Below are positions 5,070 to 27,676 of a stretch of DNA of 32,000 bases, piece after piece; position 1 is the stretch's first letter, and every line of letters starts with the position of its first letter. The notes under the pieces are model-generated. The model had not been told where the DNA came from. It searched no databases and saw only the letters and a program-made list of their open reading frames with translations. The stretch comes from Pyrobaculum aerophilum str. IM2 (GTDB taxonomy: Archaea > Thermoproteota > Thermoprotei > Thermoproteales > Thermoproteaceae). The stretch is from positions 150,001 through 182,000 of the forward strand of contig NC_003364.1 of NCBI RefSeq assembly GCF_000007225.1. The letters run 5' to 3'. The position numbers were made by a program, and so were the translations under genes.

Positions 5070-6367
5070 ACCAGGCCGAGCCTCCTCATTAGTAAAAACG
5101 CCGCAGCGCCGATCATAACCCCGGTCTCCATGTCGGAGAGGACAACTGTGGCATCACCGCCCGGAGGCAAAAATAAAGTTGCCTCAGATCTAATAGTCTC
5201 AAAAATAGCAAACAGCGCGTAGGTGTTCACAACAGTGATGTCATAACGGCCTGGCACCATTCCATCAAAATACAAACACGGCTTTTTTTCATTATATAAT
5301 TCTTGATTATTTATAAATATGTGTAATACTAATGATAATAATGATGTAATAGATAAATAACAGACTGTAAGTCTCGCCGGGCGATAAAGCCCCTTTCTCA
5401 CGACAACTACATATATTGTTTTATAATCTGATACGTCTTTGTACATTAAAATTAAATGCGTATTATTAGTATAAATGTCTACATAATAACGGTTACGTGG
5501 AATTACGTAGAAAGTAAAATTTCCCACCTGTCTCCCCTCGCTGTCTAACAAGAGGAGTTTATTCCGCCCATCGTAAGACATTAAGACGAGTATTGAGCCC
5601 TCCCCGTCTGAGGTGATCCACCATGGGAAGCCTCCTAATTCTACCTCTCTGGTCTTGTTGTCGCTTATAATCACCAGAGTACTTCCATTTAGGATATACA
5701 ATTTATTTTTTAAATAATATATTAATGGTATGCTATATTCTATAAAATGAAAATTGAAATTATAATTTTTTACTGTATTTTCTGTTACAACTGTAATTGT
5801 TGTGCCGTGGGAAATCATGACGCCGCTAGGCGTGGCCTTCACCCACCAAACATTATCTGAAAATCTCGCGGCGTATACTAGCGCCAAGTCGCTAATTCGC
5901 CTTATTTGAAACACAGCCCCATCCCCGTCTCTCCACGCTATATACAAATACCGGCTATCTTTGTCCACATAAATCTCGTTCCTAAAATCTAGATACCAAC
6001 CGCCGATCTTGGGCAAGTCCACGATTTTTTCTATTTTTAAAGTCTTGTTGTAGACATACGCCCTTTCCGCCGTCACGAGCACTAAGCGGTTACCGTCGGC
6101 GGCGCACGCATATACAGTTTCGTTTACAAAAACCTCGCCTAGCCTGTCCCCTACAAATGAGCGCACGTGCACCACCGATGCCAAAGGCGTAATCTCCACG
6201 ACGTACAGCCTAGACCCATCGGTGCAGACGTCTACTAAAATTGAATCCGAAAAAACCGTAATGAATTCAAGCCGCATCTCCACCACGCCGAACCCCCAAA
6301 TAGAAACGCCTAAAAGAGCCGCTAACAGCACGGCACGCCAATTCAACATACAACTGATGTGCAACAT
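5066..6367 (-). CDS. Secreted, C-terminally membrane-anchored surface protein (repeated beta-strand-rich, propeller-like segments)
   Basis: 433-aa ORF with an N-terminal hydrophobic segment (AVLLAALLGVSIWGFGV). Recurrent motifs are DG.RLYVV, DGNRLVLV, RYLYIAW.DGDG and EGSILVL. The C-terminal TM plus basic tail is GVMIGAAAFLLMRRLGLV. The central part of the gene is strikingly AT-rich. Confidence 0.6.
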   Translation of the reverse strand: MLHISCMLNWRAVLLAALLGVSIWGFGVVEMRLEFITVFSDSILVDVCTDGSRLYVVEITPLASVVHVRSFVGDRLGEVFVNETVYACAADGNRLVLVTAERAYVYNKTLKIEKIVDLPKIGGWYLDFRNEIYVDKDSRYLYIAWRDGDGAVFQIRRISDLALVYAARFSDNVWWVKATPSGVMISHGTTITVVTENTVKNYNFNFHFIEYSIPLIYYLKNKLYILNGSTLVIISDNKTREVELGGFPWWITSDGEGSILVLMSYDGRNKLLLLDSEGRQVGNFTFYVIPRNRYYVDIYTNNTHLILMYKDVSDYKTIYVVVVRKGLYRPARLTVCYLSITSLLSLVLHIFINNQELYNEKKPCLYFDGMVPGRYDITVVNTYALFAIFETIRSEATLFLPPGGDATVVLSDMETGVMIGAAAFLLMRRLGLV

Positions 6368-6805: not shown

Positions 6806-7399
6806 TCACGGATTTAAACACCCCAGGTGCGTATTGCGACGGCAGTCACCTCCTCGCCTAGATTGACCGAGTCTCTCCAAAGTGCGGATTGTCTGCAACG
6901 TGGCTACGGCGGATAGATAAGTGAGCAAATACCTAGCCCAGTTTAAAAAAGTCGTGTGGGGGTTATCGCCTATTGCCACCAGCGCCCAATTGGGCAACAA
7001 ATTGGCAAATTCGAGGGGGAGGTAGATCAGGTTTATAGCGTACTGCACCACAAAGGCGGCAATAACGCCTTTAACTCTCCAAAGCCTCCAAGAGGCCCAC
7101 AACAAGCCGAGCCAGGCCCAGCCCAAGACAAATAATATGGAGAGAAACGCCACGAAGAAGTGGGGATAGGCGAAGGACAGCGCCCACAAAACCGCCCCAA
7201 ACGCCAGGGCTGTGTGAAAATAGCGGCGGCACGTCATGAAGAGACACACGGCAGACACAATCGAGAAGGTGTACGCCACACTGGCGCGGATAAGCTGGGC
7301 AGGTCCCAAGGGAGGGAGTGACGCCGAGAAGAGGAAGAGGAGGCCGAGGGAAAAAAGACTACTGGATTTTAAGATAGAACCTCCCAACGCCCAACGCAT
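6806..7399 (-). CDS. Polytopic membrane protein (hypothetical)
   Basis: The ORF is open to 7486, but that extension overlaps the upstream 773-aa gene by 128 nt. I chose the ATG at 7399 (MRWALGG..) as the more plausible start; 7237 is also possible. There are 5-6 hydrophobic segments, e.g. AVLWALSFAYPHFFVAFLSILFVLGWAWLGLLW. Confidence 0.5.
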   Translation of the reverse strand: MRWALGGSILKSSSLFSLGLLFLFSASLPPLGPAQLIRASVAYTFSIVSAVCLFMTCRRYFHTALAFGAVLWALSFAYPHFFVAFLSILFVLGWAWLGLLWASWRLWRVKGVIAAFVVQYAINLIYLPLEFANLLPNWALVAIGDNPHTTFLNWARYLLTYLSAVATLQTIRTLERLGQSRRGGDCRRNTHLGCLNP

Positions 7400-9680
7400 A
7401 GGGCTCCAACGGGCCCGTGAAGTAGTTAGAGGTATCAAACATGGCATAGGAGAGGAAGTCCTCGTATATCCCGCTTCCCGGCGCAATGGTTTTAATACTG
7501 TGATAAAACGAGTGTTGAATTAACATCGAGAGCTTCACCTTAAGCCCTCCGGTGTAGGGCGGCAACTCATTTATACTCATTTTCCAGCCTGCCGCCTTTA
7601 TGTATCCAGTACCTGCGTCGTAGCCGTGAGAAATCCAATCCGACGACGGCGCACAATTTACATCGCCAGACACAGGCACCAGCATTGCAAATATGCCAAG
7701 CCCCCAAACCACATAGCCGAGAGGTCCTAAAAACGAGGGCATTGCCAGCCCGAAGATCTTACTTATCACAGCATAGCCTGTAATAGTGTTTCCAATCGCA
7801 TTAGTTACGGCGGCCACAATAGCGGCAAACGCCTCAAGCCACGGGTTCTGCCCCTCAACACTGACGTGAGTTGTCAATGAACCAACTGCGCCTTTCTTTA
7901 CGCTCTCAAACGCCAAGCACACCTTCTTAAGTTTAAGATACTGATCCAGGGGGATGTACTGTAGTGAAACTCTAGGAACTTCCGGAGTACGTTTGCCAAC
8001 ATCAGAGCCTGCTTGCGTAGCCAACACGGCATAGGCTAGTATGTAAACATCTGTCCATGGAGATATCGTCTCATTCTTTGGATCATACCCCGTAGACCAC
8101 ACTGAAAAGGCCAAATAATCTCTAAATACAATTGCAGGGGCTCTGTTTATATATACATATGTCCCCTGGTAATTTATCCAATTATTGGCGTTATGTCTCC
8201 ATATCTCTGGCCAGCGCTGGCCGTAGGCGAATAGGGATTTAAATGTCACAGCCACGTGGTATGGATAGCTGGCATAGAGGCTGGGGCTGAACTCCATGAT
8301 TAGCGGTATTACTGTGGAGTTGGCGGCGAGTAGAGGCACAATGGCAGATTCTGGTAGCGTCCCATAGATGTCATTGAAATAATAAGTGCCGCATTCAGCT
8401 GACGTGTATTTCTGCCCCGTGGCTGTAATGTAGGCGTTTGGATCCGCTGGCGTGTATATCTTCACAGTGAGGGTAGAGCTGGGGCTGCAGGCGACTACTG
8501 CCAGGCCTCTCAGCGCGACGTTTATGGGCATTTGGGCGCCTGGCGGAACTCTTACAGTAAAGAGGAGTCTAGATACCCTCACGCCGTAGCCGTAATCAGC
8601 TGAAAAGGCGTATCCCGGCTGGCCCACGGAGGAGAGCCAGTTTGCCGTGAGCAACGAATAGACGGAGCCGTCCTGGGGGGCGGGCCTGTTGTACACCACC
8701 GCTATAGAGGCGTTTACAGGGCGATTAGACGGGTTGTAGATCTCTGCGTAGAACCACAAATAGCTGTTGGCGTATGACGTCGCGCTTATGCGCGCCAATA
8801 GGTAGCGGCCGAAACTGGCTGCAGTCAGCGAGTTGCCCACGCAGGGGGGAGAGGTGGGAGACGCAGGGGGAGCGGGGGTGGGCGTGGAGTAGGGGCAGAG
8901 GTAGTAGCGGAAGGAGTTGCTAGATCCCCCTTGGATGGCCAGGTATATGTCAGAAACGCCGTGGCCTAAATACGCCCATGGAGTTGTGCCCATTACGAAG
9001 TCGTTGTCGGCATAGCCAGTGGCGTTAAAAAACCTCACAGGCGTATAGCTAGACGAACCGGCGTTTCTTGCGTTAATTGGCGACGCTGGGTTGAAGACGT
9101 ACCTCGCCCAACTGCTGACCACTGTGCCGCTCTTAGTCTCTGTGTAATACATCGGCTCCGCTTGACCTCCGGACTCGCCGAGTTGGGCGCTACCGCTTGC
9201 TTGGCCCTTAGGCGTTTTAGGCCTTCTGACGTCTAAGGGCTTGCCTTTGTAGTAATACCTCCCGCCCCTCTCCTCTGCATCTAAGTACACGTAGTAAGCC
9301 ACGGCGTTTGGAATCTCTGTGGCGTTTTTGGCGAAAACAACTCTGGCCACTCCCAAGCCCTCTATCTCTATGTCCACCACGTGCCCCTTCACGCCTGGCG
9401 GAAGCGCCGGCGGCCGCGGCGCGAAGTACTTTTTGGGTATGGCGAGGTATACGCCTTGCGGCAAGTACATGGTGGTGTTCAAGGCTCTTTCCTGCATTAT
9501 TACATCTCTTTCCACCATGATGTAGACAATGGGTACCGGCTCAACCGCTGTGGAGTTAATCACGACATAGGGAAAGCTGTCCCCCGGGCTTAACTCTACG
9601 AAGACATAGCTGGAAATATCCGCCGCTCTTAATATGGCTATTAACAACGCCGCCACTACTAGGACTCTTCTAGACAACAT
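7359..9680 (-). CDS. Large secreted protein with a Pro/Thr/Ser linker and hydrophobic C-terminal region (hypothetical, probably glycosylated)
   Basis: 773-aa ORF with an N-terminal signal peptide (MLSRRVLVVAALLIAILRAADIS). It has a PTPAPPASPTSPP linker and many N-x-S/T sequons. TM-like stretches lie near the C-terminus (AFAAIVAAVTNAIG.., YVVWGLGIFAMLVPV). No catalytic motif recognised. Confidence 0.7.
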   Translation of the reverse strand: MLSRRVLVVAALLIAILRAADISSYVFVELSPGDSFPYVVINSTAVEPVPIVYIMVERDVIMQERALNTTMYLPQGVYLAIPKKYFAPRPPALPPGVKGHVVDIEIEGLGVARVVFAKNATEIPNAVAYYVYLDAEERGGRYYYKGKPLDVRRPKTPKGQASGSAQLGESGGQAEPMYYTETKSGTVVSSWARYVFNPASPINARNAGSSSYTPVRFFNATGYADNDFVMGTTPWAYLGHGVSDIYLAIQGGSSNSFRYYLCPYSTPTPAPPASPTSPPCVGNSLTAASFGRYLLARISATSYANSYLWFYAEIYNPSNRPVNASIAVVYNRPAPQDGSVYSLLTANWLSSVGQPGYAFSADYGYGVRVSRLLFTVRVPPGAQMPINVALRGLAVVACSPSSTLTVKIYTPADPNAYITATGQKYTSAECGTYYFNDIYGTLPESAIVPLLAANSTVIPLIMEFSPSLYASYPYHVAVTFKSLFAYGQRWPEIWRHNANNWINYQGTYVYINRAPAIVFRDYLAFSVWSTGYDPKNETISPWTDVYILAYAVLATQAGSDVGKRTPEVPRVSLQYIPLDQYLKLKKVCLAFESVKKGAVGSLTTHVSVEGQNPWLEAFAAIVAAVTNAIGNTITGYAVISKIFGLAMPSFLGPLGYVVWGLGIFAMLVPVSGDVNCAPSSDWISHGYDAGTGYIKAAGWKMSINELPPYTGGLKVKLSMLIQHSFYHSIKTIAPGSGIYEDFLSYAMFDTSNYFTGPLEPYALGVGRFYLKIQ

Positions 9681-10079: not shown

Positions 10080-10505
10080 TTAGCCCCTGCGCGAGAGGTT
10101 AAACGGCTTTCCCTGTTGCAGAATCTTGTCAGCTATGTCGGGGGCCAGCCGCTTGAGGTCTTCGGCGACTGATTCCAGGAACTGTAGCTCTTCCTTTTCA
10201 TTTCTCAACTCGTCGGGGAGCATCCTCGGAATCTCCTCTATTATGGGGTACCAGCGGCCGCAGTTGGGGCAGTAAATCACCCCCGTCTCAATCTCCCACT
10301 TGTGGCACTCCTCGCACGGTAGGGTGTCCGGCTTGGGGTGCTCCTTTATTTTAAGGTCGCGGTAAGAGCAGTACTCCTCGCAGAAGGGCTTCCTGGGCCA
10401 GGTGTACTGCCTCTCGGGGTGCTCTGTGCGTTTTATCACCACAAGCCTCAGGGGGAAGGTCTTGTCGTAAGGGCAGGCCAAAACGTCCATGAGCCTGTAC
10501 TTCAT
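10080..10505 (-). CDS. Trm112/UPF0434-like zinc-ribbon protein with an inserted Cys-rich segment
   Basis: The N-terminus LMDVLACPYDKTFPL and the C-terminus IYCPNCGRWYPIIEEIPRMLPDEL match the split Trm112-type zinc ribbon (CP..C ... C..C..YPI..GIP.ML). The insertion carries CEEYC and CEEC. Confidence 0.65.
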   Translation of the reverse strand: MKYRLMDVLACPYDKTFPLRLVVIKRTEHPERQYTWPRKPFCEEYCSYRDLKIKEHPKPDTLPCEECHKWEIETGVIYCPNCGRWYPIIEEIPRMLPDELRNEKEELQFLESVAEDLKRLAPDIADKILQQGKPFNLSRRG

Positions 10506-10574: not shown

Positions 10575-10967
10575 CTAGACGAATTTGCACTCAATCCCCT
10601 CTAGCCTAGCCGCGTTGCAAAGCCTCCCGTCCCCCGTTATTAACGCCGAATTTGTCTGGATGGCGGATACTATTTGAAGGGCATCTGCGATGTATAAGCC
10701 GTGTCTCTCTACGTATTTACTCGCCTCCAAGACTTGGCCTATTGTAAGCGGCAGTAACCTCATGGCGCCTAGCCTTGTCAGCCTCCTCACGTCTCCCAGC
10801 AACCTCTTTTTGAGGAGGGGGTATACCTCAAGCTTGCCGGCTCTCCTAGCGGCTTTGTGAATAGCGGAGAGGGCCTCTCCCACGTTGAATAAGTGTGTGT
10901 ATAACAACGCATCGCCGTTATAGGCGGAGATAAATATTTTCCTCACCTCCTCTAAACCCTTCTCCAT
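10575..10967 (-). CDS. PIN-domain-like (VapC-like) protein, atypical N-terminus
   Basis: The C-terminal two-thirds fit the PIN pattern: GEALSAI.., LYIADALQIVSA, ALITGDGRLCNAARLEGI. The usual first acidic residue in strand 1 is not evident (KIFISAY). A 32-codon ORF (10952-11050, MCRKKAERGQVQLDALRRFKALKDVVDQWRRV) overlaps the start and could be an antitoxin remnant. Confidence 0.45.
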   Translation of the reverse strand: MEKGLEEVRKIFISAYNGDALLYTHLFNVGEALSAIHKAARRAGKLEVYPLLKKRLLGDVRRLTRLGAMRLLPLTIGQVLEASKYVERHGLYIADALQIVSAIQTNSALITGDGRLCNAARLEGIECKFV

Positions 10968-11994
10968 TGATCTACTACATCTTTCAGCGCCTTGAATCGG
11001 CGCAGGGCGTCTAGCTGTACTTGACCCCTCTCCGCCTTCTTCCTACACATAATCCGTCCCCATCATTCTCAGTACTTTCTCCGTTCACTCGTCCTCTGTA
11101 TATACGACGAACTAAATGTCCTTATCACGACCTAGCTTAATGGTATATTACTGGGAGCCCCCTGTCTACGCCAGTTCCGTCTCTCTGTTCAAAAACTACG
11201 GCGACAAGCACTTTTTAAAACACAGCGCTTCTCACGGCTCAACGTCCGTGAAAACCCTGAGTTTAAAAGGAATGGGAAAAACTATAACTCGCTTTTTGTA
11301 GTTTACCGCAAGCGTTGCCAATATTGCAAATAAAGCTAGCAATAAGCCATCTGTCGGTTATCAACACGCCCATTCGTAGACATGCTCTCAGCAACATACA
11401 TTTTGTCGGCTATAGATTCAGTCGTCATCTCTACAGCGGCAAGGAGTTTGTAGCTTATGTCCCAGCGATCTACAACATCTATTCAAATAGTCCTCTCCTC
11501 CGATTTTTCTCGCCGTAAATTAACCTCCAGCCGGCCCACTCTTTAATGTGCAGAAGACGACCAGGTAAATCCCTCAGCGTTGGTACACTCATGCAATATC
11601 GCTACCTCCTTCTCAACAACGCCTCTAGCTTAACCTCAGTAGTTTGTCACTGACATATGTGCTTTTGCGACACATGAAGTTTTGCCTGACGGCTTACAGA
11701 TAGCACAAGCATATCGCTAAGAGCACAAAAGGGATTTTGATATCTGCTAACTCGCCGCTTCTCAGGGGCACTACAATGTCTACCGGGCGTCTCTCTAGCG
11801 CATGTCATGTGGCGTATATCTCCATTACTCTGCGCCAAGTCTGGACATAGGTGTAACCACAGCCAGCTCCACCGTTGGAACACTAAATGTGTAGCGCCAA
11901 AATTGTTAAAACGTCGGGACCCGACTCCTCATCCGCTTCAAGTCATATTAGATAGTTTTTCACATGATGGAGGATAAAAAAGAGCAACGCCTTG

Positions 11995-12159
11995 TTAAAT
12001 GCCTATCCCTATGCCAATAACAATAGAAAGAGTTAATAAAATAAAGAGGAGTAACCTAATAGGGAGCCTAGGGGCATAGAGCTCTTTGTAGACATAAAGA
12101 AGGAGGGCTTGCCATAAGAACAGGGCCCCTGTTGTAAAGACTTGATTAACTAGATCCAT
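11995..12159 (-). CDS. Small hydrophobic peptide (54 aa), last gene of the radical-SAM operon (not in the supplied ORF track)
   Basis: My own translation is MDLVNQVFTTGALFLWQALLLYVYKELYAPRLPIRLLLFILLTLSIVIGIGIGI*. The ATG at 12159 overlaps the 3' end of the rSAM gene by 14 nt. It has two TM-like segments. It lies in AT-rich DNA, where long open frames are less expected by chance. Confidence 0.3.
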   Translation of the reverse strand: MDLVNQVFTTGALFLWQALLLYVYKELYAPRLPIRLLLFILLTLSIVIGIGIGI

Positions 12160-13159
12160 GTGCCTTTGTTGGTAACATACTTTTATCTGTTGACGGCAAT
12201 ATCTCCCTCAACAATTCGTCTTTGATATTTAACAGCTTATCTCTATATTTTGTCCCGGCCAGATAGCAGACTTCACATGGGTGTAACACCTCATCTTCCA
12301 TATTCAGCTTCTTCATCAAGGCGGCTGGCCCCTTTACTCTAAGATACCACGCAAGGATGTGGCGATTTAGTCTCGCAACGATAACTTCTAGCGATTCATT
12401 TTTTATATTGCCTACCACAAAGAGAGGCCTTGCTTCTGTATTTATAGCATGACCGCAACAGAAGGTTATATCGCCGTTTGGGTGTACTACAATCTTAGCT
12501 ACAGCATCGACACAGCCTACACCTTCTTTTGGTCGATTTGTCTGAGATATTGCGCCACGGGGTATTTTAAATCTGGCTCTGCCTAATGGGGCGGGGAAAT
12601 CTTCAGTAACTATGACGTTGGTCAAACCAGCCTCATCCAGCTTTGATCTGATACGGTCATAATCAGGTTGTCCATCATCTACAGCAAGCTTGATCGTTCC
12701 CACCACTACGTCAAGACCTAACTCCACCGCCGCCCTTGCTGCGTTTACCACATTGGTAAACCCGCCAAATCTCTGAAGATGCGGCAAGTGAAATCTATCA
12801 AAACTGATATTCAGCTCCCTTAGGCCCAATGTAGCAAGTTCTTCCAGAAATTTTCTTGCTCTTTCGTAAGTCGAAGCCCACCACGCATTAGTGACAAGTC
12901 TTGTAACAAAGCCTAGATCCGCGGCGAGCTTTATCCCACGCTTAAGATGTTCTGGGAATAAAGTAGGCTCACCGCCGGTAAAAACCACTACTTTAATTGA
13001 GGGAATCCAATAAGCCTCTCTGATGACTTTCTCTAAATAATCCAACTCAAGAACGGTGAACTCACGTGGTGACGACCCTATGCTACAGTGGTCACATTCA
13101 AAATTGCATTTGTAACTATACATGAAGACTAGAGTATCGGGAATTGCGAAAAAAGACAT
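12146..13159 (-). CDS. Radical SAM enzyme with a SPASM/twitch-like C-terminal Cys-rich extension
   Basis: CNFECDHC is the CxxxCxxC cluster motif at residues 18-25, and FTGGEPTL is the GGE motif. The C-terminal part reads GCVDAV..VHPNGDITFCCGH..VVGNIKNESLEVIV..HPCEVCY. It has five Cys and the 'GN-I/L-x-x-x-S-L' pattern typical of peptide/protein-modifying SPASM-family maturases. Confidence 0.85.
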   Translation of the reverse strand: MSFFAIPDTLVFMYSYKCNFECDHCSIGSSPREFTVLELDYLEKVIREAYWIPSIKVVVFTGGEPTLFPEHLKRGIKLAADLGFVTRLVTNAWWASTYERARKFLEELATLGLRELNISFDRFHLPHLQRFGGFTNVVNAARAAVELGLDVVVGTIKLAVDDGQPDYDRIRSKLDEAGLTNVIVTEDFPAPLGRARFKIPRGAISQTNRPKEGVGCVDAVAKIVVHPNGDITFCCGHAINTEARPLFVVGNIKNESLEVIVARLNRHILAWYLRVKGPAALMKKLNMEDEVLHPCEVCYLAGTKYRDKLLNIKDELLREILPSTDKSMLPTKAHGSS

Positions 13160-13416
13160 TATACTCCTTTATAAGTTAACGAAATGTGATATATGGCAGG
13201 CGCCACGACAACCGCATATACCCATACCGCTACTGCGTGCCAGACGGCACCTACCATGTTAACTACGCCGGCTACGTTGAAGAAAACATACAAGTTTAGC
13301 TCAACCCAAGTATTTACAGAAGTAGAGCCATATTCAAGTGGTTTAGCGAACTCGGCGCTATGGTATAGCAATAAGTTTTCTTTTATATCTAAGTCTGCTA
13401 TTAAGTGCAATATCAT
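13159..13416 (-). CDS. 85-aa hydrophobic small protein/peptide (possible rSAM substrate or membrane partner)
   Basis: Its start overlaps the upstream stop (ATGA at 13413-13416) and its stop overlaps the rSAM ATG (TAATG at 13157-13161). It has a polar N-terminal ~40 aa followed by a hydrophobic, Trp/Val/Ala-rich C-terminal half (NVAGVVNMVGAVWHAVAVWVYAVVVAPAIY). It contains no Cys. Confidence 0.5.
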   Translation of the reverse strand: MILHLIADLDIKENLLLYHSAEFAKPLEYGSTSVNTWVELNLYVFFNVAGVVNMVGAVWHAVAVWVYAVVVAPAIYHISLTYKGV

Positions 13417-13982
13417 AGCTCTTCGCCACTCTTATTATCCGGCCCTCTTGTTGCCTCTCCGTAATATACACGCATTATGATATCTACTGTTCTCACAACT
13501 TTTTGCTTTTTCTCTTTTAGCGCCTTGTCTCTAACTTCACTAAGATATTCCTTAGGCGTATGCTTTCTTTCAATTTCACCCATTACGTGTTCTGTATCGT
13601 CACCAATTCCTATGAATCTGGCTTTATCTCCTTCCTCAAACACAGCAACTGAGGGCTGCAATATAGTCTGGTTTGCATGTTTTACAACCCAGGCATGCAA
13701 GACATATGCCTTGCCCTTATAATTGGTCACATGGATTACGGCTTTCGTAACATTTGCTACGTGGCTACGTTTTTCATCAACTTCTTTAATTTCTACACAG
13801 TAACCTTCCCCGGAAAGTTCATTGGCCCTAGGCGCATAGGCTAACGCCATTAATGGATTAAGGCTTATTGCTAACAGGAAGGAAGCGCTTATATTTGCTA
13901 GGAACTCTCTACGCTTGATTAATTCCTCGAAGTTCTTTATCTCCCTTAATTTATTTTGAGTATTTCGTGTAGGCTGGGACAT
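13413..13982 (-). CDS. Tat-signal-bearing exported protein (hypothetical)
   Basis: 189-aa ORF with a twin-arginine motif KRREFLANISASFLLAISLNPLMALAYA, followed by a ~130-aa soluble domain with a single Cys (GEGYCVEIK). It is the first gene of the coupled operon. Confidence 0.65.
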   Translation of the reverse strand: MSQPTRNTQNKLREIKNFEELIKRREFLANISASFLLAISLNPLMALAYAPRANELSGEGYCVEIKEVDEKRSHVANVTKAVIHVTNYKGKAYVLHAWVVKHANQTILQPSVAVFEEGDKARFIGIGDDTEHVMGEIERKHTPKEYLSEVRDKALKEKKQKVVRTVDIIMRVYYGEATRGPDNKSGEEL

Positions 13983-14492
13983 AAGCTTTTTTTTCCTGTA
14001 TTTTTAAGCCTTATGCTGTTAAACATACCGTGTTACTATAAGGGGTTATTGGTCGTAATTTCCGTATATGTTTTGATAGGGCTTATTAACTATATAATTA
14101 TTGCGTCCCCAGCCCCGCTCGTTCTAAAAATCTTTATCATCTCTATATCTTCGGGGGCGTCTCTTCAGATTTTCCTCTGGATTCCGAAAGAGGCATATGT
14201 GAAGGAAGGGGGAGTGCTATTAATGGGACTAGTGCGTAGGAAGTTTATCCCGGGAGAGGTCATGGAGGAGTATACATACGAGGAAGTCAGACGAAGGATC
14301 TCGTTCGTACCTGTTGGGAATAGGGTTATTTTACACTGCTTTTTCTGGGGCCTATACGGGAGCTTTCAGAGACGCAACGGGGAGTGGGTTAGTGTGGACG
14401 TCTATGCCGGGAGAGACTGCAAGGGCAAGTGGCTTTTGCTTAAAAAACGGGGGCAGGAGAAGTACCTCTTAGTCTGTCCCGGCAACACATGA
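13956..14492 (+). CDS. Hypothetical membrane protein (three TM segments plus a ~90-aa soluble C-terminal domain); start uncertain
   Basis: 178-aa ORF. The N-terminal hydrophobic part is encoded in AT-rich DNA and the C-terminal part (from MGLVRRKF.. at 14223) in GC-rich DNA. Alternative starts are 14013 and 14223. Its stop overlaps the CPBP ATG (ATGA at 14489-14492). Confidence 0.45.
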   Translation: MSISCRLGHKLFFPVFLSLMLLNIPCYYKGLLVVISVYVLIGLINYIIIASPAPLVLKIFIISISSGASLQIFLWIPKEAYVKEGGVLLMGLVRRKFIPGEVMEEYTYEEVRRRISFVPVGNRVILHCFFWGLYGSFQRRNGEWVSVDVYAGRDCKGKWLLLKKRGQEKYLLVCPGNT

Positions 14493-15678: not shown

Positions 15679-16145
15679 TAACGCACTAAAGGATTGGAAT
15701 GGTAAAGCGTTTTAGATGGCCCGTACTGCCGGGCGAGAAAGACAGCAAAGCGGCTTGACTACACCACAGGATGTGCGATATGACAAAAGCGGCTGTCGCT
15801 GAGTACTGAGAGAAGTACGCCGACCCGTTAATTAGAGAGTACGACTTGAGGAGGATCTTTTGGTGGAACGGAGAGCGGCGCGGAAAGCCGATGTCGTGTT
15901 TTGTAACGGAGAAAAGTCGGTATGCAAGATGGGCAACAAGATGGCCGCATTTACGGATTTGACACACCCCATGACGTGTACCTCAGACCCGAAATCAAGT
16001 TCGTTGACGAGTGGATCAAGGTGGCCCACAGGGGCGATAAGAGGCGACGCGTAGAAAAGTAGCAGCTCATGCAGTATGTGATCACCTTATCCTTCCAAAC
16101 GGAGGCTGTGCAGACAAGTGACGGCATCACTGTAGCCTGAGTCAA
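15679..16145 (+). pseudogene. Decayed copy of the paREP2a-like gene (inverted relative to the intact copy at 17482-17952)
   Basis: Nucleotide and protein similarity to the 156-aa ORF runs along its length. For example, ggaaagccgatgtcgtgttttgtaacggagaaaag matches gggaagccgatgtcgtgtttcgtcacggagaaaaag, and ..FRWPVLPGE.., ..CDMTKAAVAEY*EKYADPLIREYDLRRIFWWNGERRGKPMSCFVTEK.. match the intact protein. The copy is broken by in-frame TGA stops and a 1-nt deletion in an A-run (A5 -> A4) near 15913. The short ORFs 15686-15967, 15832-16029, 15860-16054 and 15951-16145 are fragments or shadows of it. Confidence 0.7.
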
Positions 16146-16201: not shown

Positions 16202-16417
16202 TTAAAGCCTCATTTCTCTAATTAGGCGGGATGCCGGCAGTCCTAAGTCCACTGGGTCGAAGTCCAGCTCTTCAGCGGCGACTGGGATTTCGCCGAAGTA
16301 CTCCCTTAGTATTCTCTCCAACAACTCCGATACGTCCACTCCCTCCCGGGCCGCCTCTTCTTTAAGCCTTTTCCAAACAGAGGCGTCTATGTAAATACTA
16401 GTGCGGATTTTCTCCAC
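16202..16417 (-). CDS. Ribbon-helix-helix (CopG/antitoxin-like) DNA-binding protein
   Basis: 71-aa ORF. TSIYIDASVWKRLKEEAAREGVDVSELLERILREYF fits the strand-helix-helix RHH pattern. It has an acidic/hydrophobic C-terminal tail like VapB-type antitoxins. It lies 31 bp downstream of the TGT-like gene on the same strand. Confidence 0.7.
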   Translation of the reverse strand: MEKIRTSIYIDASVWKRLKEEAAREGVDVSELLERILREYFGEIPVAAEELDFDPVDLGLPASRLIREMRL

Positions 16418-16448
16418 GGGGGTATATACTCTTTGGCATATATATGTC

Positions 16449-17366
16449 TTAGCGCCGAGCGGCGGCCACTTGGAGGTATAGTTTTCTAAACGCTGGCGCT
16501 CTAGGCGTCTGGGACCAGGACTTCACCACTACCCACGCGTTGACCAAGGCCCTGTATTCAAAACTTGTCCTTATACGCTCGTAAAAGCCGTCCAGCGCCG
16601 GGAAGCCGGTTTCCATAAGAAAGCGGTAGAGCTCTTCTAACTCGCCGTCTTTTGGCTTCGCCTTTCCGAAGCTCACCGCGCGGCTCGTCACGTGCCTCTC
16701 CCCGCCGCCGGGCAGTATCACTTTGCCGTAAGCCGCCTTGAGGCGCCACGTGGCGCTGTCAGTGCTCTGAATTCCCATGGCGTGTAATATAGGCGTCACA
16801 GAGGGGCTTCCCATGCCCAGGACGTGGATTGGGCCTTTAAACTCCCTCCGCGCGATGCTAATTAGCCTCAAGGCCAGCTCCCTCGAGCCGCGGGGGACGC
16901 CCCTGGTAGTTAAGACGTAGGGAACGGCGCCACCAATGGCGAGAGCCGGGGCGTCTGAATACTTCCTTAAGTATTTTAAGAAGAGCCCCTCCTCTCTGTA
17001 TACGTGGAGCACCGGCACAACTATATCGCCTAGCGCCCTCCTCAGCCTCTCCCAGTTTTTATACGACTTTTCAAACTTTTTCTCAGCCACCTCGAGGGGG
17101 TCGCTCGGCGACGGCGGGACGTCTAGGGAGAAGTACAGCTGGGCGTCTACTCTGCGGTATATCTCCGCTATTTTGTCCACGTCCACTGTAAGGCCTTTTT
17201 TCAAAATTTGATAGCCCCCCGAGTCAATCCACAGCTCCCCCTCAAATCCCAACGCAGACCTGGGGTCTCTCTTCACCTCAAGGGCGTTTACCATTACAGC
17301 CGGGACGTGGAAATACAGCCACGGCCTCGGCACTGCGTTGAGAGGCGTGCCCAGCACAACCTTCAC
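16449..17366 (-). CDS. TGT-family (queuine/archaeosine tRNA-ribosyltransferase-like) catalytic-core-only paralog; DpdA-like candidate
   Basis: 305-aa ORF with a GTG start. The motifs, in order, are WIDSGGYQILKKG, YFSLDVPPSP, ALAIGGAVP and PIHVLGMGSPSV..GIQSTDSATWRLKAAYGKVILPGG. These parallel the archaeal TGT motifs DSGSFQ, LDIPTPP, PIGGVVP and HLFGAGHP..DLFDSASY as I recall them. The protein has no cysteine at all, so it cannot form the Zn site. It has no C-terminal PUA or tRNA-binding domains. Confidence 0.8.
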   Translation of the reverse strand: MKVVLGTPLNAVPRPWLYFHVPAVMVNALEVKRDPRSALGFEGELWIDSGGYQILKKGLTVDVDKIAEIYRRVDAQLYFSLDVPPSPSDPLEVAEKKFEKSYKNWERLRRALGDIVVPVLHVYREEGLFLKYLRKYSDAPALAIGGAVPYVLTTRGVPRGSRELALRLISIARREFKGPIHVLGMGSPSVTPILHAMGIQSTDSATWRLKAAYGKVILPGGGERHVTSRAVSFGKAKPKDGELEELYRFLMETGFPALDGFYERIRTSFEYRALVNAWVVVKSWSQTPRAPAFRKLYLQVAAARR

Positions 17367-17384: not shown

Positions 17385-17396
17385 AGTTATAAAACA
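17385..17396 (-). promoter_or_regulatory. Putative TATA box of the TGT-like/RHH operon
   Basis: The minus strand reads ..CTGTTTTATAACTCC.. and is centred ~25 nt upstream of the GTG at 17366, consistent with a leaderless transcript. Confidence 0.35.
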
Positions 17397-17481: not shown

Positions 17482-17952
17482 TCAACTCCTGCCGAATTCA
17501 TCACGTATGCCCCACTTCCCCCAGTTATAAACTTGTGGGGCGAAACGGATAATAAGCCAGTCGCCATACCTGCCTTGACTGTCATCGCCCCTGGGGGCCA
17601 CTTTTATCCAGTCGTTCACAAGCTTGATTTCAGGCCTGAGGTATACGCCGTGGGGCGTGTCAAATACGTAAAACGCGGCCATTTTTTCTCCCACCTTGCA
17701 TACGGCCTTTTTCTCCGTGACGAAACACGACATCGGCTTCCCTCTCCATTCTCCCTCCCACCAGAAGGCCCTCCTAAGGGCGTATTCGCTGATTAGCGGT
17801 TCGGCGTATTTCTCCCCGTACTCAGCAATTGCGGTCTTTGCCATTTCGCACATGTCGTAATACAGTTCAAGCATTCTCACTACTTTCCCCTCCTCCCCTG
17901 GCAGGATAGGCCATCTGAAGCATCTGCGGTACCAGTCCTTTAACGCGGCCAT
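17482..17952 (-). CDS. paREP2a-like repeat-family protein (intact copy)
   Basis: 156-aa ORF with balanced composition. A decayed paralogous copy lies at 15679-16145. It is arranged divergently with the 408-aa gene across an 80-bp spacer, as I recall for P. aerophilum paREP2a/2b pairs. The family name is from memory. Confidence 0.6.
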   Translation of the reverse strand: MAALKDWYRRCFRWPILPGEEGKVVRMLELYYDMCEMAKTAIAEYGEKYAEPLISEYALRRAFWWEGEWRGKPMSCFVTEKKAVCKVGEKMAAFYVFDTPHGVYLRPEIKLVNDWIKVAPRGDDSQGRYGDWLIIRFAPQVYNWGKWGIRDEFGRS

Positions 17953-18032
17953 TACCTGGCTCTTAAGCTCAAGCCTCCTCTGCTCCTCCTACGCCGCTCT
18001 AATACGCGGGGCCATTTGTTCAAGCCGCGTGG

Positions 18033-19259
18033 ATGTTCGCGACGGCGTGGGCTGAGCTCTCGCGGCTGTGGAGATTTGGCATAGAGAATGGCCTATACGC
18101 CGATCACATTTTTAATAAGCTTGAGGGCATTAGAAAATACGTGGAGGAGTACGCTAACAGGCTGAGGATTGAGTACACGCTGTACAGCCTCCCCGGCGTT
18201 GACCCGTGGGTAGAGGTGAGGTTTAAGGACGAGAAGGGGAACGAAGTCGCCCATATAAACATTAGATGGGATCGCGAAAAGCTACGAGCCGTATTCGAAG
18301 GCGCCAAAGAAAAGGCGGAAAGACTGGCTTCAATACTGAACGCCTTGGGCGCCAGCGTAAATGCTATGGAGCTTGATGGGAAATGGCGCGTAGATCTGTG
18401 CACAGACTCCATCACCGCAATACGCCGTAAGGAGTGGCTAGATGTGGTTAGGGCTCTGGTGGAGGAGTTGCACAGTAGGGGGGTGATAAATGAGGAGCAG
18501 AGGGATAGATTACTGACTGAAATAAACGCCGGGCCTAATGTGGTTGAGATTGCCGGCGTGGAGTTGAGCGTTCGGCAGATGATAAGCGGTAAATCCAAGG
18601 CATTGATAATTACATACCTGCCGACTTCTCCAGCCGCCTTTGACGCCGCCGTAAAGGCGCTTAGAGACGCGGGCTTTGTTGAGGGGGTGCACTTCACTGC
18701 GAAGAGGCCGGAGGGCGGCGTGCAGGGATACGTATACATTAAGTTGCCGGCCGGCCTTTGGCGTTTAGAGGAGCTGAGGAGGCAGGGCGTTGATTGGGCA
18801 GACAAGGCGTTAAGGCGCCTTGAAGAAATAGCAAAGGCGAGGGGCTTCTCCAACCTACTGGAGGAGTACTTAAGGCCGGCTATGGAGGCGGAGACCGTCG
18901 ATCCGAGGGGGCTGGTGGTCGACGACGCCGAGAGAGGGTTAAAGGCAGTTGTAAGAGGCGTGAGGGTGGAGCGGGAAGGCGGGAGGCCTAGGGTCGTCGT
19001 GGAGTATGAGGTAGGCGGGGATGTGACGTCCTTTTCCTTTATCTGGGGCGTAAGAAAGGGAGGAGGCATTGTAGCAGGCTTAGATCTAAACGACGAAAAG
19101 GCCCTCATGATGACTGCCCTACTCGGCGATAAGGCAATAATGGGGAAGAAGGGGCACATGACGCTTTCCGCTAAACATCTATTCGCCCTAGCGAGACTTA
19201 GGGGCATCGGCTGGGAGCTGTTGAGGTGGTATGCAGAAGTAATGAGAGAACACCGCTAA
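18033..19259 (+). CDS. paREP2b-like repeat-family protein (intact copy)
   Basis: 408-aa ORF with charged, helix-rich composition. The antisense 367-aa ORF 18104-19207 is Ser/Thr/Pro/Ala-rich and is treated as a shadow. The 5' end has a decayed paralog at ~15480-15600. Confidence 0.6.
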   Translation: MFATAWAELSRLWRFGIENGLYADHIFNKLEGIRKYVEEYANRLRIEYTLYSLPGVDPWVEVRFKDEKGNEVAHINIRWDREKLRAVFEGAKEKAERLASILNALGASVNAMELDGKWRVDLCTDSITAIRRKEWLDVVRALVEELHSRGVINEEQRDRLLTEINAGPNVVEIAGVELSVRQMISGKSKALIITYLPTSPAAFDAAVKALRDAGFVEGVHFTAKRPEGGVQGYVYIKLPAGLWRLEELRRQGVDWADKALRRLEEIAKARGFSNLLEEYLRPAMEAETVDPRGLVVDDAERGLKAVVRGVRVEREGGRPRVVVEYEVGGDVTSFSFIWGVRKGGGIVAGLDLNDEKALMMTALLGDKAIMGKKGHMTLSAKHLFALARLRGIGWELLRWYAEVMREHR

Positions 19260-19486
19260 AGGAGCAATTCAACAAAATGTTGAGACAGGTTTAAAGAGCG
19301 TAGGGAGTGGGAAGAAGCTTTAAAAAGACAGAAGATTAGAGAGGAGGTGCTAGGCGCAGCGGCAGAGCGGTATTTTCAATGCTTTAGCGAGCACCTGACG
19401 CTATACTTAAAACGCTTAGGAGTGTGGGCCGGGTGTGAGGGCTTGCGAGACGAGCTATCAGGAGAGTCTCAGGCTTTTTAAACGCC

Positions 19487-19972
19487 GTGTTGTTGATAAT
19501 CGTTAAGACGGACTCGCCGGAGGTTTCGAAAAGGCTTGGGAGAATGCTGGAGGGTCTAGAGCTAGTGCCGGGAGTGTACTTAACGTGGTACCCAAGGGAT
19601 AAAGCGGCTAGGGCTGTAGAGGCGGTGAAGAAAAACGTGGTGAAGCAGTGGGAGGAGCGGGGAAAGGGGCCGGTATTTGAAGCGGCTCTGCTGGAGCTCA
19701 GCGAAGAGCAGTACAAAGAGGTGAGGCCCATGGCGAGGGCGGTGATAGAAGCCGTCGGGGCTACCATGTTGGAAGAAATGGAGCGGCTGTTGGTAAACAT
19801 GCGCTCTGGCAAACAGGGGAAAAATTTACTGGGGTGGTATAGGGACTTGGCGAATAGGTACCAGAAGCTGGTGAACGCCGCCTTGGCCCTCGACATCGAG
19901 CCAACGATCATAGGCAAGTTAAAGGACAAATGGAAAGAGGTATCGCTCGAGGCCGGGAGGCTACGCTCCTAG
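19487..19972 (+). CDS. Hypothetical protein (N-terminal beta-alpha-beta unit plus helical C-terminal half)
   Basis: 161-aa ORF with a GTG start and protein-like composition. The antisense 181-aa ORF 19384-19929 is Ser/Thr/Ala-rich and is treated as a shadow. The N-terminus LLIIVKTDSPEVSKRLGRMLEGLELVPGVYL loosely recalls Cas2/VapD-type ferredoxin folds. This resemblance is weak. Confidence 0.5.
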   Translation: MLLIIVKTDSPEVSKRLGRMLEGLELVPGVYLTWYPRDKAARAVEAVKKNVVKQWEERGKGPVFEAALLELSEEQYKEVRPMARAVIEAVGATMLEEMERLLVNMRSGKQGKNLLGWYRDLANRYQKLVNAALALDIEPTIIGKLKDKWKEVSLEAGRLRS

Positions 19973-20437
19973 AAACACCTCCACGTATTTAAGCAAGAGC
20001 TCCACGTCTCTGGCGGCCTCGTCGTCTGACTTGTATCTGCTCAACACGAGCTCTTTGTCGGGGCCGTTGAACTGGTACTCGTGAAGAGATAGCGCGAGTT
20101 CTGTCGCTAAAAACACCTCTATTCCGTACGCCTCTGCCAACAGCCTAGCAACCTCTCTCAGCCTTGTCGACGGCATATATGCCACATGCCACTCAGCCAT
20201 ACCCACTCTTTTGTTTTTAATACGCTTCACCCACCTGTACACAGAGGACAAATAGCCCAGTTTCTTCGCCGCCAAGACTGCGATTGTTGCCTTCCAAGCT
20301 TGATAAGCCTTGCCGGCGGCGTTGCGCGTCAATCCTTGTCTTAAAAACTCCCGGGCTAGCTCTGCCTCAAACAAGGTCTCTTTCCGCCTGGCCTCTATGT
20401 AGCCGTTTAAGTCAGACCAAGGCTTTGCCAGCTCCAC
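19961..20437 (-). CDS. PaREP1-family protein (HEPN-superfamily-related helical protein)
   Basis: 158-aa ORF. From memory, ..YIEARRKETLFEAELAREFLRQGLTRNAAGKAYQAWKATIAVLAAK.. and ..ALSLHEYQFNGPD.. match the archaeal PaREP1/PaREP8 family signature. Confidence 0.65.
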   Translation of the reverse strand: MELAKPWSDLNGYIEARRKETLFEAELAREFLRQGLTRNAAGKAYQAWKATIAVLAAKKLGYLSSVYRWVKRIKNKRVGMAEWHVAYMPSTRLREVARLLAEAYGIEVFLATELALSLHEYQFNGPDKELVLSRYKSDDEAARDVELLLKYVEVFLGA

Positions 20438-22150: not shown

Positions 22151-23206
22151 GTGAGATTTAAGGCGCGTTACGTGCTCGCGGGAGAGCTGGAGGTTGTGGA
22201 AAACGGTGTGGTCGAGGTGGACGACTCGGGCGTGGTCGTGGGGGTTGGGAAATATACTGGCGGAGTCGCGGCCGATTTGGGAAACGTAGTATTAATGCCC
22301 CAGCTCGTCAACGCGCACGTCCACGTCCTCGACGCCGCAATTATTGACAGAGACGATTTGTATATCGACGACCTAGTGGGGTGGCCTCACGGGGTGAAAT
22401 ACCACGTGGTTAAGGGGTTGGTTAGGAGGGGGAGGCACGTCCCCCTCTTAAAGAAAGTGGCCCAGAGGATGAGGAGCTACGGCGTGGGTTGTGCCGTGAT
22501 ATACGCCGAGTATGCAGCTAGAGACGTGGAGGAGGTCTTTAGGCAGTACGGCATAGAGGCGGTTGTCTTCCAAGAGGCACACGGGGACTTCCCCAATTAT
22601 CCCAACGTACAAGTGGCGTCTCCCTTGGATCACCCCGTTGAATACCTCAAAGAGCTCAGGAGGAGGTATAGGCTAGTGTCGACGCACGTCTCGGAGACTA
22701 GCGACTGTCACGAGGGAGGCGACTTGGAGCTCGCCCTCAAGGCGCTGGATGCAGACGTCTTAGTCCACTTAGTACACGTCACGGAGGAGGAAATAGCCCA
22801 GATACCGCCTCACAAGGCGGTGGTGGTGAACCCGCGGGCCAACGCCTATTTCGTCGGGAGGATCGCGCCGGTGCACAAGTTGCTACACCTCAAGCCGCTT
22901 CTGGGCACTGACAACGTCTTTATGAACGAGCCAGACCCGTGGGCGGAGATGAAGTTCTTACACGCCTATTCCTCCGCCGCGGGGTGGGCGCTGGGAGAGA
23001 GGGAAATACTCTCCATGGCCACAGTGTGGGCTTGGGAAAAACTCAGATGTTCGCCCCCAATAGAGCCGGGAAAACCGCTGAGGGGGCTGGCGGTGGCGGC
23101 TCCGTATACGGGCAATAAAGTATTAAAGTTCTTAGTCAAGAGGACCTCCCACCGAGACGTCATAGCCTTCATCGAGGGCGGGAGGCTACTCCAAGCATGG
23201 CACTGA
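22151..23206 (+). CDS. Amidohydrolase-superfamily metallohydrolase (chlorohydrolase/deaminase-like)
   Basis: The 351-aa ORF has the metal ligand pattern LVNAHVHVLDA (HxH), then STHVSE, VHLVH and LLGTDN (Asp). The order is typical of Amidohydro_1 enzymes. It is shorter than typical MTA/SAH or guanine deaminases. Confidence 0.7.
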   Translation: MRFKARYVLAGELEVVENGVVEVDDSGVVVGVGKYTGGVAADLGNVVLMPQLVNAHVHVLDAAIIDRDDLYIDDLVGWPHGVKYHVVKGLVRRGRHVPLLKKVAQRMRSYGVGCAVIYAEYAARDVEEVFRQYGIEAVVFQEAHGDFPNYPNVQVASPLDHPVEYLKELRRRYRLVSTHVSETSDCHEGGDLELALKALDADVLVHLVHVTEEEIAQIPPHKAVVVNPRANAYFVGRIAPVHKLLHLKPLLGTDNVFMNEPDPWAEMKFLHAYSSAAGWALGEREILSMATVWAWEKLRCSPPIEPGKPLRGLAVAAPYTGNKVLKFLVKRTSHRDVIAFIEGGRLLQAWH

Positions 23207-27306: not shown

Positions 27307-27636
27307 TTAAATGTAGAGGGGCTGGACGCCGCCTGACTCTGCCACTACCTCCACTTCAACGCCGATGTAATAAGATTTAACAGTTACTTTGACGTAAGGG
27401 GGATTGACTGCCGCCTTAATTTTCTCCATAATGTCCACGGCTAGTTCTTCGTGTAGTATCTCCCTGCCCCGGTAGCTATCCACTATTTTCTTAAACTCCT
27501 CAATGGCGAGCGCGGCGCCGCGGGGGATGTACTCCACGGTCACTTCAAAACTGTCAACTGTTTTACTAATGGGGCACACCGACTCGCCCCTGGTCTTCAG
27601 CCTTACGAGCTGGGGGTTTTTAGACAGTTTGAGCAT
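27307..27636 (-). CDS. queF-L: QueF-like T-fold protein (crenarchaeal archaeosine-pathway QueF-L / preQ0-acting enzyme family)
   Basis: The segment GESVCPISKTVDSFEVTVEYIPRGAALAIEEFKKIVDSYRGREILHEELAVDI parallels the unimodular QueF pattern ..CP.TGQPD...i.Y.P....ES.K.Y..SFR.....HE... The ~110-aa size fits the QueF-like proteins described for Pyrobaculum. The ORF track starts at GTG 27648, but that codon abuts the TATA box, so ATG 27636 (MLKLSKNPQ..) is preferred. Confidence 0.8.
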   Translation of the reverse strand: MLKLSKNPQLVRLKTRGESVCPISKTVDSFEVTVEYIPRGAALAIEEFKKIVDSYRGREILHEELAVDIMEKIKAAVNPPYVKVTVKSYYIGVEVEVVAESGGVQPLYI

Positions 27637-27649
27637 GGCCGCCCCCACC

Positions 27650-27662
27650 TATATTTATTTAA
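27650..27662. promoter_or_regulatory. Shared bidirectional TATA element between QueF-like and the GH13 gene
   Basis: TATATTTATTTAA is centred ~20 nt from ATG 27636 on the minus strand and ~21 nt from GTG 27677 on the plus strand. It is the only AT-rich element in the 40-bp spacer. Confidence 0.5.
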
Positions 27663-27676
27663 GAGTTCTATCCACA

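Follow-up and report, generated by a model that had tools for sequence, protein, structure and literature searches.

The 32,000-nucleotide (nt) stretch of the Pyrobaculum aerophilum str. IM2 genome analyzed here (NC_003364.1, positions 150,001 to 182,000 of the forward strand; this whole stretch is hereafter the window) codes for a 305-amino-acid (aa) protein that, by sequence comparisons, belongs to the DpdA-like branch of the TGT superfamily and is predicted to be an active base-exchange enzyme. We estimate, with a probability of roughly 55%, that this transglycosylase exchanges guanine for preQ0, most likely in DNA, and that a QueF-like enzyme then makes the archaeosine base from it. Below, the term family denotes the 109 homologs recovered by protein search (35–94% identity to the 305-aa protein), and the term wider family denotes the 250–480-aa proteins in the 1453 clusters (E ≤ 1e-3) obtained from an exhaustive search of representatives.

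Fold, Active Site and Zinc Site

The homology of the 305-aa protein to the TGT superfamily is far beyond chance, as indicated by its matches to the PHROG profile phrog_887 (E = 1e-26), the ArcTGT model TIGR00432 (E = 3.7e-12) and, in Foldseek searches, the Pyrococcus horikoshii ArcTGT structure (1iq8; E = 8e-13). An initial annotation of this DNA had recognized TGT motifs with all three conserved aspartates in place; we indeed find WIDSGGYQ, SLDVPPSP, AIGGAVP, HVLGMGSP and STDSATW, with D48, D82 and D203 aligning to D95, D130 and D249 of 1iq8. These three residues are invariant across a 38-member family alignment and 98 wider-family sequences, and over the same set S49, G50 and H121 are also invariant or nearly so.

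The protein has not a single cysteine, which bears out the earlier claim that a zinc site is impossible. The CxCxxC motif is found in none of the 109 family members, 44 of which lack cysteine altogether, whereas it is retained in 101 of 141 wider-family members (in most as CxCxxC...H). Thus, the zinc site was lost in the family clade, as in the viral and phage DpdA1 proteins. An AlphaFold model based on 38 homologs (predicted local distance difference test, pLDDT, 94.2) is a single TIM barrel with a short helical C-terminus and no added domain, in agreement with the earlier observation that C-terminal tRNA-binding or PUA domains are absent. The top matches of this model in the PDB are the P. 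horikoshii ArcTGT structures (1iq8 and 1j2b, E about 1e-12, 20% identity), followed by the bacterial and human TGTs, and its top matches in BFVD are viral proteins labeled ‘queuine tRNA-ribosyltransferase’, including one from a Sulfolobales rudivirus (E = 1e-18).

H121, which lies in the stretch PVLHVY, aligns with Gln169 of ArcTGT and with the histidine of the STSV2, SIRV10, Seurat and Ssp-JY38 DpdA proteins. A PxxH motif is present in 108 of the 109 family members; histidine occupies this position in the family, the wider family, the STSV/SIRV proteins and phage DpdA1, in contrast to glutamine in all aligned tRNA TGTs. At the equivalent position of bacterial DpdA, His181 hydrogen-bonds the base (PMC10164549). 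Together with this histidine, the derived characters common to the family and DpdA include a W/AAxG signature after the nucleophile and an insertion before the C-terminal helices.

Relationship to Viral and Phage DpdA

No cellular model matches the protein more strongly than phrog_887 (95 bits). The members of this PHROG include the Seuratvirus DpdA1 (323 bits), SIRV10 gp43 (227 bits) and STSV2_15 (191 bits), and the profile gave no match to the canonical ArcTGT core. Searches of phage records with tblastn aligned 93% of the protein to STSV2 and STSV1 with 37.5% identity (E = 1e-37), recovered rudivirus proteins at about 26%, and gave weaker matches to Synechococcus-phage and Seuratvirus DpdA. 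BLASTP searches with the DpdA1 proteins of 9g (gp03), Seurat, Ssp-JY38, BA3 and RHEph05 each recovered 77–105 of the 109 family members (best match 5e-16, about 250 aa aligned) and none of 120 ArcTGT cores; Ssp-JY38 DpdA1 matched the window protein itself at 1.8e-12. Profile comparisons with hhalign on the column-trimmed family alignment gave the family a score of 493 against the wider family, 278 (E = 2e-40) against the crenarchaeal virus proteins, 134 (E = 1e-18, aligned through the C-terminus) against DpdA1 and 116 against ArcTGT. The wider family scored 301 against ArcTGT, and DpdA1 a non-significant 17.8. We set aside a neighbor-joining tree of all these groups on account of saturation (NaN distances and a ladder topology). 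Beyond its own clade, the protein is closest to the DpdA of virus STSV2 and to the rudivirus proteins. We hence favor a DpdA-type over an ArcTGT assignment on the combined grounds of phrog_887, the STSV2 DpdA match, the phage DpdA1 matches and the replacement of glutamine by histidine.

The crenarchaeal virus DpdA proteins (STSV2_15/STSV1 ORF18 and the SIRV ORF310-type ‘tRNA-ribosyltransferase’) are, like the window protein, single TGT barrels of about 290–310 aa devoid of a CxCxxC zinc site and a PUA domain, with the common motifs WVDSGGYQ, SLDIP, PVIHAY, HVLGxGSP and, near the C-terminus, VNAW. STSV2_15 has been named DpdA, its neighbor STSV2_16 is ArcS2, and the DNA of STSV2 carries dCDG (Hutinet et al. 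2023, PMC10516641). The arrangement with a DUF5591 (ArcS-C1) protein as the next gene recurs in distant cellular members of the family, but in Thermoproteus the neighbor is QueF-like rather than ArcS-C1, and the window has no adjoining amidinotransferase gene. Further, unlike the viral genes, the window gene belongs to the chromosome of cells, where it is passed on vertically and kept in synteny, and a scan of IMG/VR viral contigs with the family motifs found no viral copy. The phage DpdA1 proteins (9g gp03, Seuratvirus/CAjan type) likewise comprise about 300 aa, are zinc-free and PUA-less, belong to the same PHROG, and display the three aspartates, the histidine for glutamine, the W/AAxG signature and the C-terminal helices, albeit at just 25–28% identity. 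Their genes lie within FolE–QueD–QueE–QueC clusters by replication genes, a context different from that of the family, and DNA modification has been demonstrated for their carriers (PMC6884629). The bacterial DpdA (S. Montevideo, 7ui4, NF041059) also has the histidine at the base-reading position, and the two would have the logic of a TGT-fold DNA transglycosylase in common. However, it comprises 436 aa, has additional insertions, and bears a zinc motif within a supplementary domain (PMC5699537).

Two viral contexts deserve mention in their own right. In the rudiviruses SIRV10 and SIRV2 (L089 1808–3903; L097 1–1773), an ‘amino acid permease’ of about 400 aa lies directly 5′ of the DpdA-like gene, a placement recalling the QueT transporter before DpdA in phage Dp-1 (L095); by analogy, this permease may be a 7-deazaguanine base importer. 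In Mycobacterium phage CRB2 (L096 1–1619), a ParB-like gene lies directly 5′ of DpdA, echoing the ParB-like ATPase DpdB needed by bacterial DpdA.

Distinction from ArcTGT and ArcS

The archaeal tRNA enzyme ArcTGT (TgtA; 1iq8, TIGR00432) has in common with the 305-aa protein the TIM barrel and the three aspartates, provides its best solved-structure match, and uses what is also its likely incoming base, preQ0. On the other side, ArcTGT features Gln169, the zinc site and the C1/C2/PUA domains, where the 305-aa protein has a histidine and none of the others; the alignment of the latter to ArcTGT ends at about residue 224. It scores 45.4 bits against a TIGR00432 cut-off of 350 bits, and 20.5 bits against a threshold of 26.3 for the Pfam TGT model. 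In Thermoproteus tenax, the canonical tgtA is TTX_1934 (1680673–1682196, 507 aa, arCOG00989; listed in the gene table that supplements the T. tenax genome publication), and the family copy lies 42 kb from it, at about 1724088–1725065. The family is thus a second TGT paralog and not the tRNA ArcTGT, as the initial annotation had supposed, and the refuting condition named there, a genome with no other TGT homolog, is escaped at least in T. tenax; the presence of tgtA in the window’s own genome is likely by extension from relatives.

We therefore rejected the identification of the protein as ArcTGT on the TIGR00432 score, the absent zinc site and C1/C2/PUA domains, and the separate T. tenax tgtA; a split ArcTGT was rejected on the same grounds. 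A third candidate, the N-terminal part of ArcS or a split ArcS, was also discarded: NF040592 gave no match at E ≤ 1 with the window protein or at E ≤ 0.01 with three other members, and the catalytic aspartates are invariant.

Conservation, Synteny and Insertions

Protein searches recovered the family from Pyrobaculum, Thermoproteus, Vulcanisaeta, Caldivirga, Pyrofollis and Hyperthermus, and a genome scan adds Pyrodictium, Ignisphaera, Acidilobaceae and metagenome-assembled genomes (MAGs) of Njordarchaeota. The resulting distribution, spanning Thermoproteales, Pyrodictiaceae and Ignisphaera, tracks organismal taxonomy. In P. islandicum and P. oguniense, the gene is preceded on the opposite strand by a 161-aa open reading frame (ORF) and an amidohydrolase gene and followed on the same strand by a gene for a Trm112-like protein; across the other Pyrobaculum genomes, the 161-aa neighbor is 129–731 bp away. 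The window retains this ancestral order and orientation with respect to orf351/orf161 and the Trm112-like gene, indicating that the transglycosylase gene has not moved. Its upstream side has received PaREP2a and PaREP2b, and its downstream side 5.9 kb of inserted DNA, in which we find the RHH gene, a fragment of PaREP2a, genes for a CAAX protease and a PIN protein, and a low-GC segment bearing a radical SAM/SPASM gene. A conserved syntenic position is common to Pyrobaculum and Thermoproteus. We conclude that the transglycosylase gene is ancient, resides on the chromosome and has been inherited vertically in Thermoproteales and their relatives, and that the RHH gene and the PaREP2 copies were inserted around it in this lineage.

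Genes of the toxin–antitoxin type gather in the slot that separates the transglycosylase gene from the Trm112-like gene: the window has the PIN gene (10575–10967) and the orphan RHH gene, P. oguniense has a HEPN–MNT pair (L008 10934–11667), and the slot of P. islandicum is empty. One Pyrobaculum MAG has three copies of the transglycosylase gene on three contigs, the products of which are 65–68% identical to the window protein, and a divergent 293-aa subgroup is also seen in Pyrobaculum (L016, L017, L018; P0069–P0072); these could reflect paralogy or mixed binning.

Genomic Partners across the Family

The neighborhoods of the family repeatedly feature genes of 7-deazaguanine and DNA metabolism, namely those for QueF-like, DUF5591, HerA-like, NurA and FolE proteins; in the window, the sole such linkage is the QueF-like gene 10 kb away, which also serves tRNA. 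In all seven Thermoproteus loci, the QueF-like gene is 5–54 bp downstream of the transglycosylase gene and an ABC transporter pair comes next; six of the seven also have the Trm112-like gene, at a distance of about 2 kb on the downstream side. In the five Pyrobaculum genomes where the QueF-like gene fell within the stretch fetched, it is 3–10 kb off. Database searches with the QueF-like protein reached only Pyrobaculum, Thermoproteus and close relatives within the Thermoproteaceae.

A gene for a HerA-like DUF87 ATPase, a paralog well under the HerA equivalog cut-offs, adjoins the transglycosylase gene in about 21 loci from Vulcanisaeta, Caldivirga, some Thermoproteaceae MAGs and Desulfurococcales MAGs. 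This pairing, joined by NurA, is also seen for a wider-family member with just about 28% identity (L101). Five distant loci, from Njordarchaeota, a Nitrososphaerota MAG and a Thermoprotei MAG, have directly downstream a gene coding for DUF5591 alone (ArcS C1, no PUA), as in the STSV2 DpdA–ArcS2 pair, and in one locus (L083) the HerA-like, transglycosylase and DUF5591 genes stand together. In Pyrodictiaceae, a FolE gene is 3.4 kb from the transglycosylase gene. The repeated pairing with the non-homologous QueF-like or ArcS-C1 proteins argues that the product of the transglycosylase is their substrate. Contexts of the wider family include a restriction/methyltransferase/Abi island, a virus-like FolE–QueD–QueE–QueC cluster, and a YhhQ-type (Vut_1) transporter with a DNA methyltransferase.

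Among the individual loci, L006 (4522–5307) and about 14 from Pyrodictiaceae have a gene for a conserved 255–261-aa radical SAM protein (CX3CX2C) about 700 bp upstream, and the same protein is encoded 5 kb away in T. tenax (L002 12111–12878); we considered QueE for these and did not adopt the name, since they gave just generic radical-SAM scores. One wider-family MAG locus (L098 4765–7179) has tandem TGT-like paralogs of 389 and 392 aa flanked by genes for an NgoFVII/PLD-type restriction nuclease, an N6/N4 DNA methyltransferase and an AIPR abortive-infection protein. From its gene content, it looks like a 7-deazaguanine-based defense island of a type unmatched by the bacterial DpdA models. A virus-like contig (L099 2575–8599) codes for a TGT-like protein, QueD, a QueE-like radical SAM protein, FolE and QueC; after these come genes for a nucleoside 2-deoxyribosyltransferase and an ERCC4 nuclease.

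Proposed Mechanism and Alternative Explanations

In the mechanism we propose, D203 would act as the nucleophile on C1′ of the target guanosine and D48 as the general acid/base, while D82 and H121 would bind the base and Y52 would stack on it. The exchange would proceed by double displacement as in TGT and DpdA, with guanine leaving and preQ0 entering. Since tRNA archaeosine requires preQ0, a cellular supply exists on which the enzyme would draw. The QueF-like protein, the probable downstream enzyme, would turn the inserted preQ0 into the archaeosine base, a step that the ArcS-C1/DUF5591 protein would perform in other lineages. Where present, the HerA-like ATPase may open the DNA, by analogy with DpdB, the partner ATPase on which bacterial DpdA depends. 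DNA is likelier than RNA as the substrate given the DNA-acting nearest relatives, the DpdA-like histidine, the PUA-less partners, and the recurring HerA/NurA and restriction-modification contexts.

Several observations weigh against this proposal. The QueF-like protein is the known tRNA archaeosine synthase (PMC5485725), and the other conserved neighbor in Pyrobaculum and Thermoproteus is the Trm112-like protein; the context in these two genera therefore fits a role in RNA equally well. PUA loss by itself is no bar to a tRNA substrate, and in HH score the family is about equally far from ArcTGT and DpdA1. The initial annotation had invoked DpdA of both bacterial dpd islands and phages; only the viral and phage kinship survives, as the NF041059 and PADLOC DpdA models gave no match at E ≤ 1, a profile comparison with 7ui4 gave E = 1.7, and no dpdB–K genes are found in the window. 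The 32-kb window also has neither a HerA-like gene nor a restriction partner. A canonical tgtA in Pyrobaculum is documented by one supplementary-table line naming a P. arsenaticum ortholog; a protein database search for a Pyrobaculum tgtA with a P. horikoshii ArcTGT fragment, apparently limited to proteins of similar length, returned only short partial TgtA proteins.

The strongest competing explanation keeps the chemistry and changes the polymer: the protein would be a second, PUA-less RNA transglycosylase that places preQ0 in tRNA beyond or besides G15, or in another RNA, whereupon the QueF-like protein would make archaeosine, and the viral relatives would have been recruited from an RNA enzyme. 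Trm112 proteins, which the product of the conserved downstream neighbor in Pyrobaculum resembles, are partners of RNA or protein methyltransferases. The QueF-like protein, directly downstream in Thermoproteus, acts in vitro on preQ0-tRNA (PMC5485725). These RNA-associated neighbors and the behavior of the gene as a core, vertically inherited one without restriction partners, like housekeeping RNA enzymes, are why we keep this explanation in play, and the protein finds both its best cellular model match and its best PDB match in ArcTGT. Nevertheless, we regard an RNA substrate as the less likely of the two: the single genome examined for it already has a canonical tgtA, the residue that reads the base is a histidine of the DpdA type, and the phage DpdA1 proteins that match the family, and do not match ArcTGT, are validated as acting on DNA. 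Moreover, the partners elsewhere are the HerA-like ATPase, NurA and PUA-less ArcS-C1, and the wider family occurs in restriction-modification and viral preQ0 clusters. We also know of no report of a second 7-deazaguanosine site in Thermoproteales RNA, though no exhaustive search for one was made; this counts against it as well.

Still less probable is an activity without base exchange in a polymer, with the protein serving as a preQ0/G+-binding scaffold for the QueF-like enzyme, in the manner of the TGT-like N-terminal domain of ArcS, or as a 7-deazaguanine nucleoside hydrolase or salvage enzyme. The pairing across lineages with G+-forming QueF-like or DUF5591 proteins would suit such a role, as would the make-up of ArcS itself, a TGT-like N-terminal domain plus C1 that are sometimes separately encoded (PMC10516641). 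However, the nucleophile, the acid/base aspartate and the full barrel are invariant over deep divergence, the ArcS model goes unmatched while the ArcTGT and phrog_887 models match, and for the phage nt-1 DpdA2 and ArcS pair it has been shown that preQ0 is placed into DNA and dG+ then formed (PMC10516641). The explanation offered by the initial annotation—an accessory, repeat-bracketed mobile cassette of the transglycosylase with an RHH regulator or partner—is scarcely tenable. It drew on two arrangements that we do observe: inverted PaREP2a copies flank the pair, and the 71-aa RHH gene lies 31 bp downstream (spacer 16418–16448) on the same strand. Yet an RHH gene adjoins the transglycosylase gene at only one of the 88 loci bearing a copy, that of the window, and the same slot holds HEPN–MNT in P. 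oguniense and nothing in P. islandicum. Further, the conserved gene order and orientation, the taxonomic tracking of the family and the separate TATA-like boxes of the two genes speak for an ancestral gene around which the repeats were inserted.

Organization of the Locus

The coordinates of the transglycosylase gene and its surroundings are collected in Table 1. The TATA-like boxes of the RHH and transglycosylase genes lie 21–29 nt 5′ of their respective starts, that of the RHH gene being ATATATAT at about 25 nt; the TTTTATAA box is consistent with a separate leaderless transcript for the transglycosylase gene. The RHH protein is probably of the orphan antitoxin or repressor type, and no toxin ORF was seen beside its gene; a partner role for it is not supported. 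The repeat bracket reported in the initial annotation consists of inverted arms of about 280 nt (15771–16050 and 17572–17853; 79–80% complementary), one within the intact PaREP2a gene and the other constituting the degenerate fragment. Its placement of a QueF-like gene at 27.3 kb was likewise correct, and a protein database search found the product to be 93% identical to the P. aerophilum protein. No tRNA or Rfam elements were found in the window.

Table 1. Features of the window around the transglycosylase gene (window coordinates).
Feature	Position	Strand	Remarks
Transglycosylase gene	16449–17366	−	305 aa, GTG start; DpdA-like, zinc-free, PUA-less; predicted catalytic D48/D203 and base-binding D82/H121
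TTTTATAA TATA-like box	17387–17394	−	21–28 nt 5′ of the transglycosylase GTG start
RHH gene (CopG/RHH_1), 71 aa	16202–16417	−	Pfam RHH_1 E = 5e-9; incidental, non-conserved neighbor
Degenerate PaREP2a fragment	15771–16050	+	Inverted copy of part of the 17482–17952 gene
Intact PaREP2a gene	17482–17952	−	Pfam E = 9e-61; insertion separating the transglycosylase gene from its ancestral divergent neighbor
PaREP2b gene	18033–19259	+	Same insertion as PaREP2a
161-aa protein, function not assigned	19487–19972	+	Conserved divergent upstream neighbor in Pyrobaculum
Amidohydrolase (chlorohydrolase/TRZ-ATZ type)	22151–23206	+	Conserved upstream neighbor in Pyrobaculum
Trm112-like zinc-ribbon protein	10080–10505	−	Conserved same-strand downstream neighbor in Pyrobaculum and Thermoproteus; insertions put 5.9 kb between
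QueF-like archaeosine synthase	27307–27648	−	Pfam QueF 4.7e-8; about 10 kb from the transglycosylase gene here

Elsewhere in the window, PaREP2a, PaREP2b and PaREP1 (19961–20437) form a repeat-family cluster (17482–20437), and a 367-aa antisense ORF within PaREP2b is probably spurious. The region 11000–14000 has a GC content of 0.41–0.46 against about 0.53 elsewhere, and it harbors the radical SAM/SPASM gene (12146–13159), the top match of which is the YydG peptide-epimerase family (E = 7e-30); this segment, inserted between the transglycosylase gene and the Trm112-like gene, may have been acquired horizontally as a locus of the type for ribosomally synthesized and post-translationally modified peptides (RiPPs). 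The GC content also falls to 0.40 at 5–6 kb, and two large ORFs (5066–6367, 433 aa; 7359–9680, 773 aa) have no Pfam matches. On the strand opposite the QueF-like gene, a 596-aa alpha-amylase ORF (27503–29293) overlaps its 5′ part by about 146 nt; the P. oguniense ortholog comprises 532 aa, so the true start of the alpha-amylase is probably further downstream.

Implications

DNA modification with 7-deazaguanines is already established for bacterial dpd islands, phages and archaeal viruses, from which the families bDpdA and DpdA1–4 are known. In the literature searched, we found no report of a cellular crenarchaeal 7-deazaguanine DNA system, nor of what is new here, a zinc-free, vertically inherited cellular crenarchaeal clade linked to QueF-like, ArcS-C1 and HerA-like proteins; existing annotations of the family read just ‘tRNA-ribosyltransferase’ or ‘hypothetical’. 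As a tentative proposal, to which we give somewhat less than even odds, Thermoproteales, Pyrodictiaceae and related hyperthermophilic archaea may constitutively carry dPreQ0 or deoxyarchaeosine in their own chromosomal DNA by means of a vertically inherited, restriction-free module, in which a DpdA-like transglycosylase would work with a QueF-like or ArcS-C1 amidinotransferase and with a HerA-like ATPase, and this clade may be the source of the STSV/SIRV and ultimately the phage DpdA1 enzymes.

Should the substrate be RNA instead, the family would reveal a second 7-deazaguanine site. If it is DNA, as we favor, phage DpdA1 would gain a cellular sister group bridging to ArcTGT: DpdA1 and ArcTGT have no detectable direct similarity, yet both match the family clade. 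Hyperthermophilic archaea would then possess a core-genome, non-island form of 7-deazaguanine chemistry, which would bear on self/non-self marking, on virus–host mimicry (including the unexplained dCDG of STSV2) and possibly on the stability of DNA near 100 °C.

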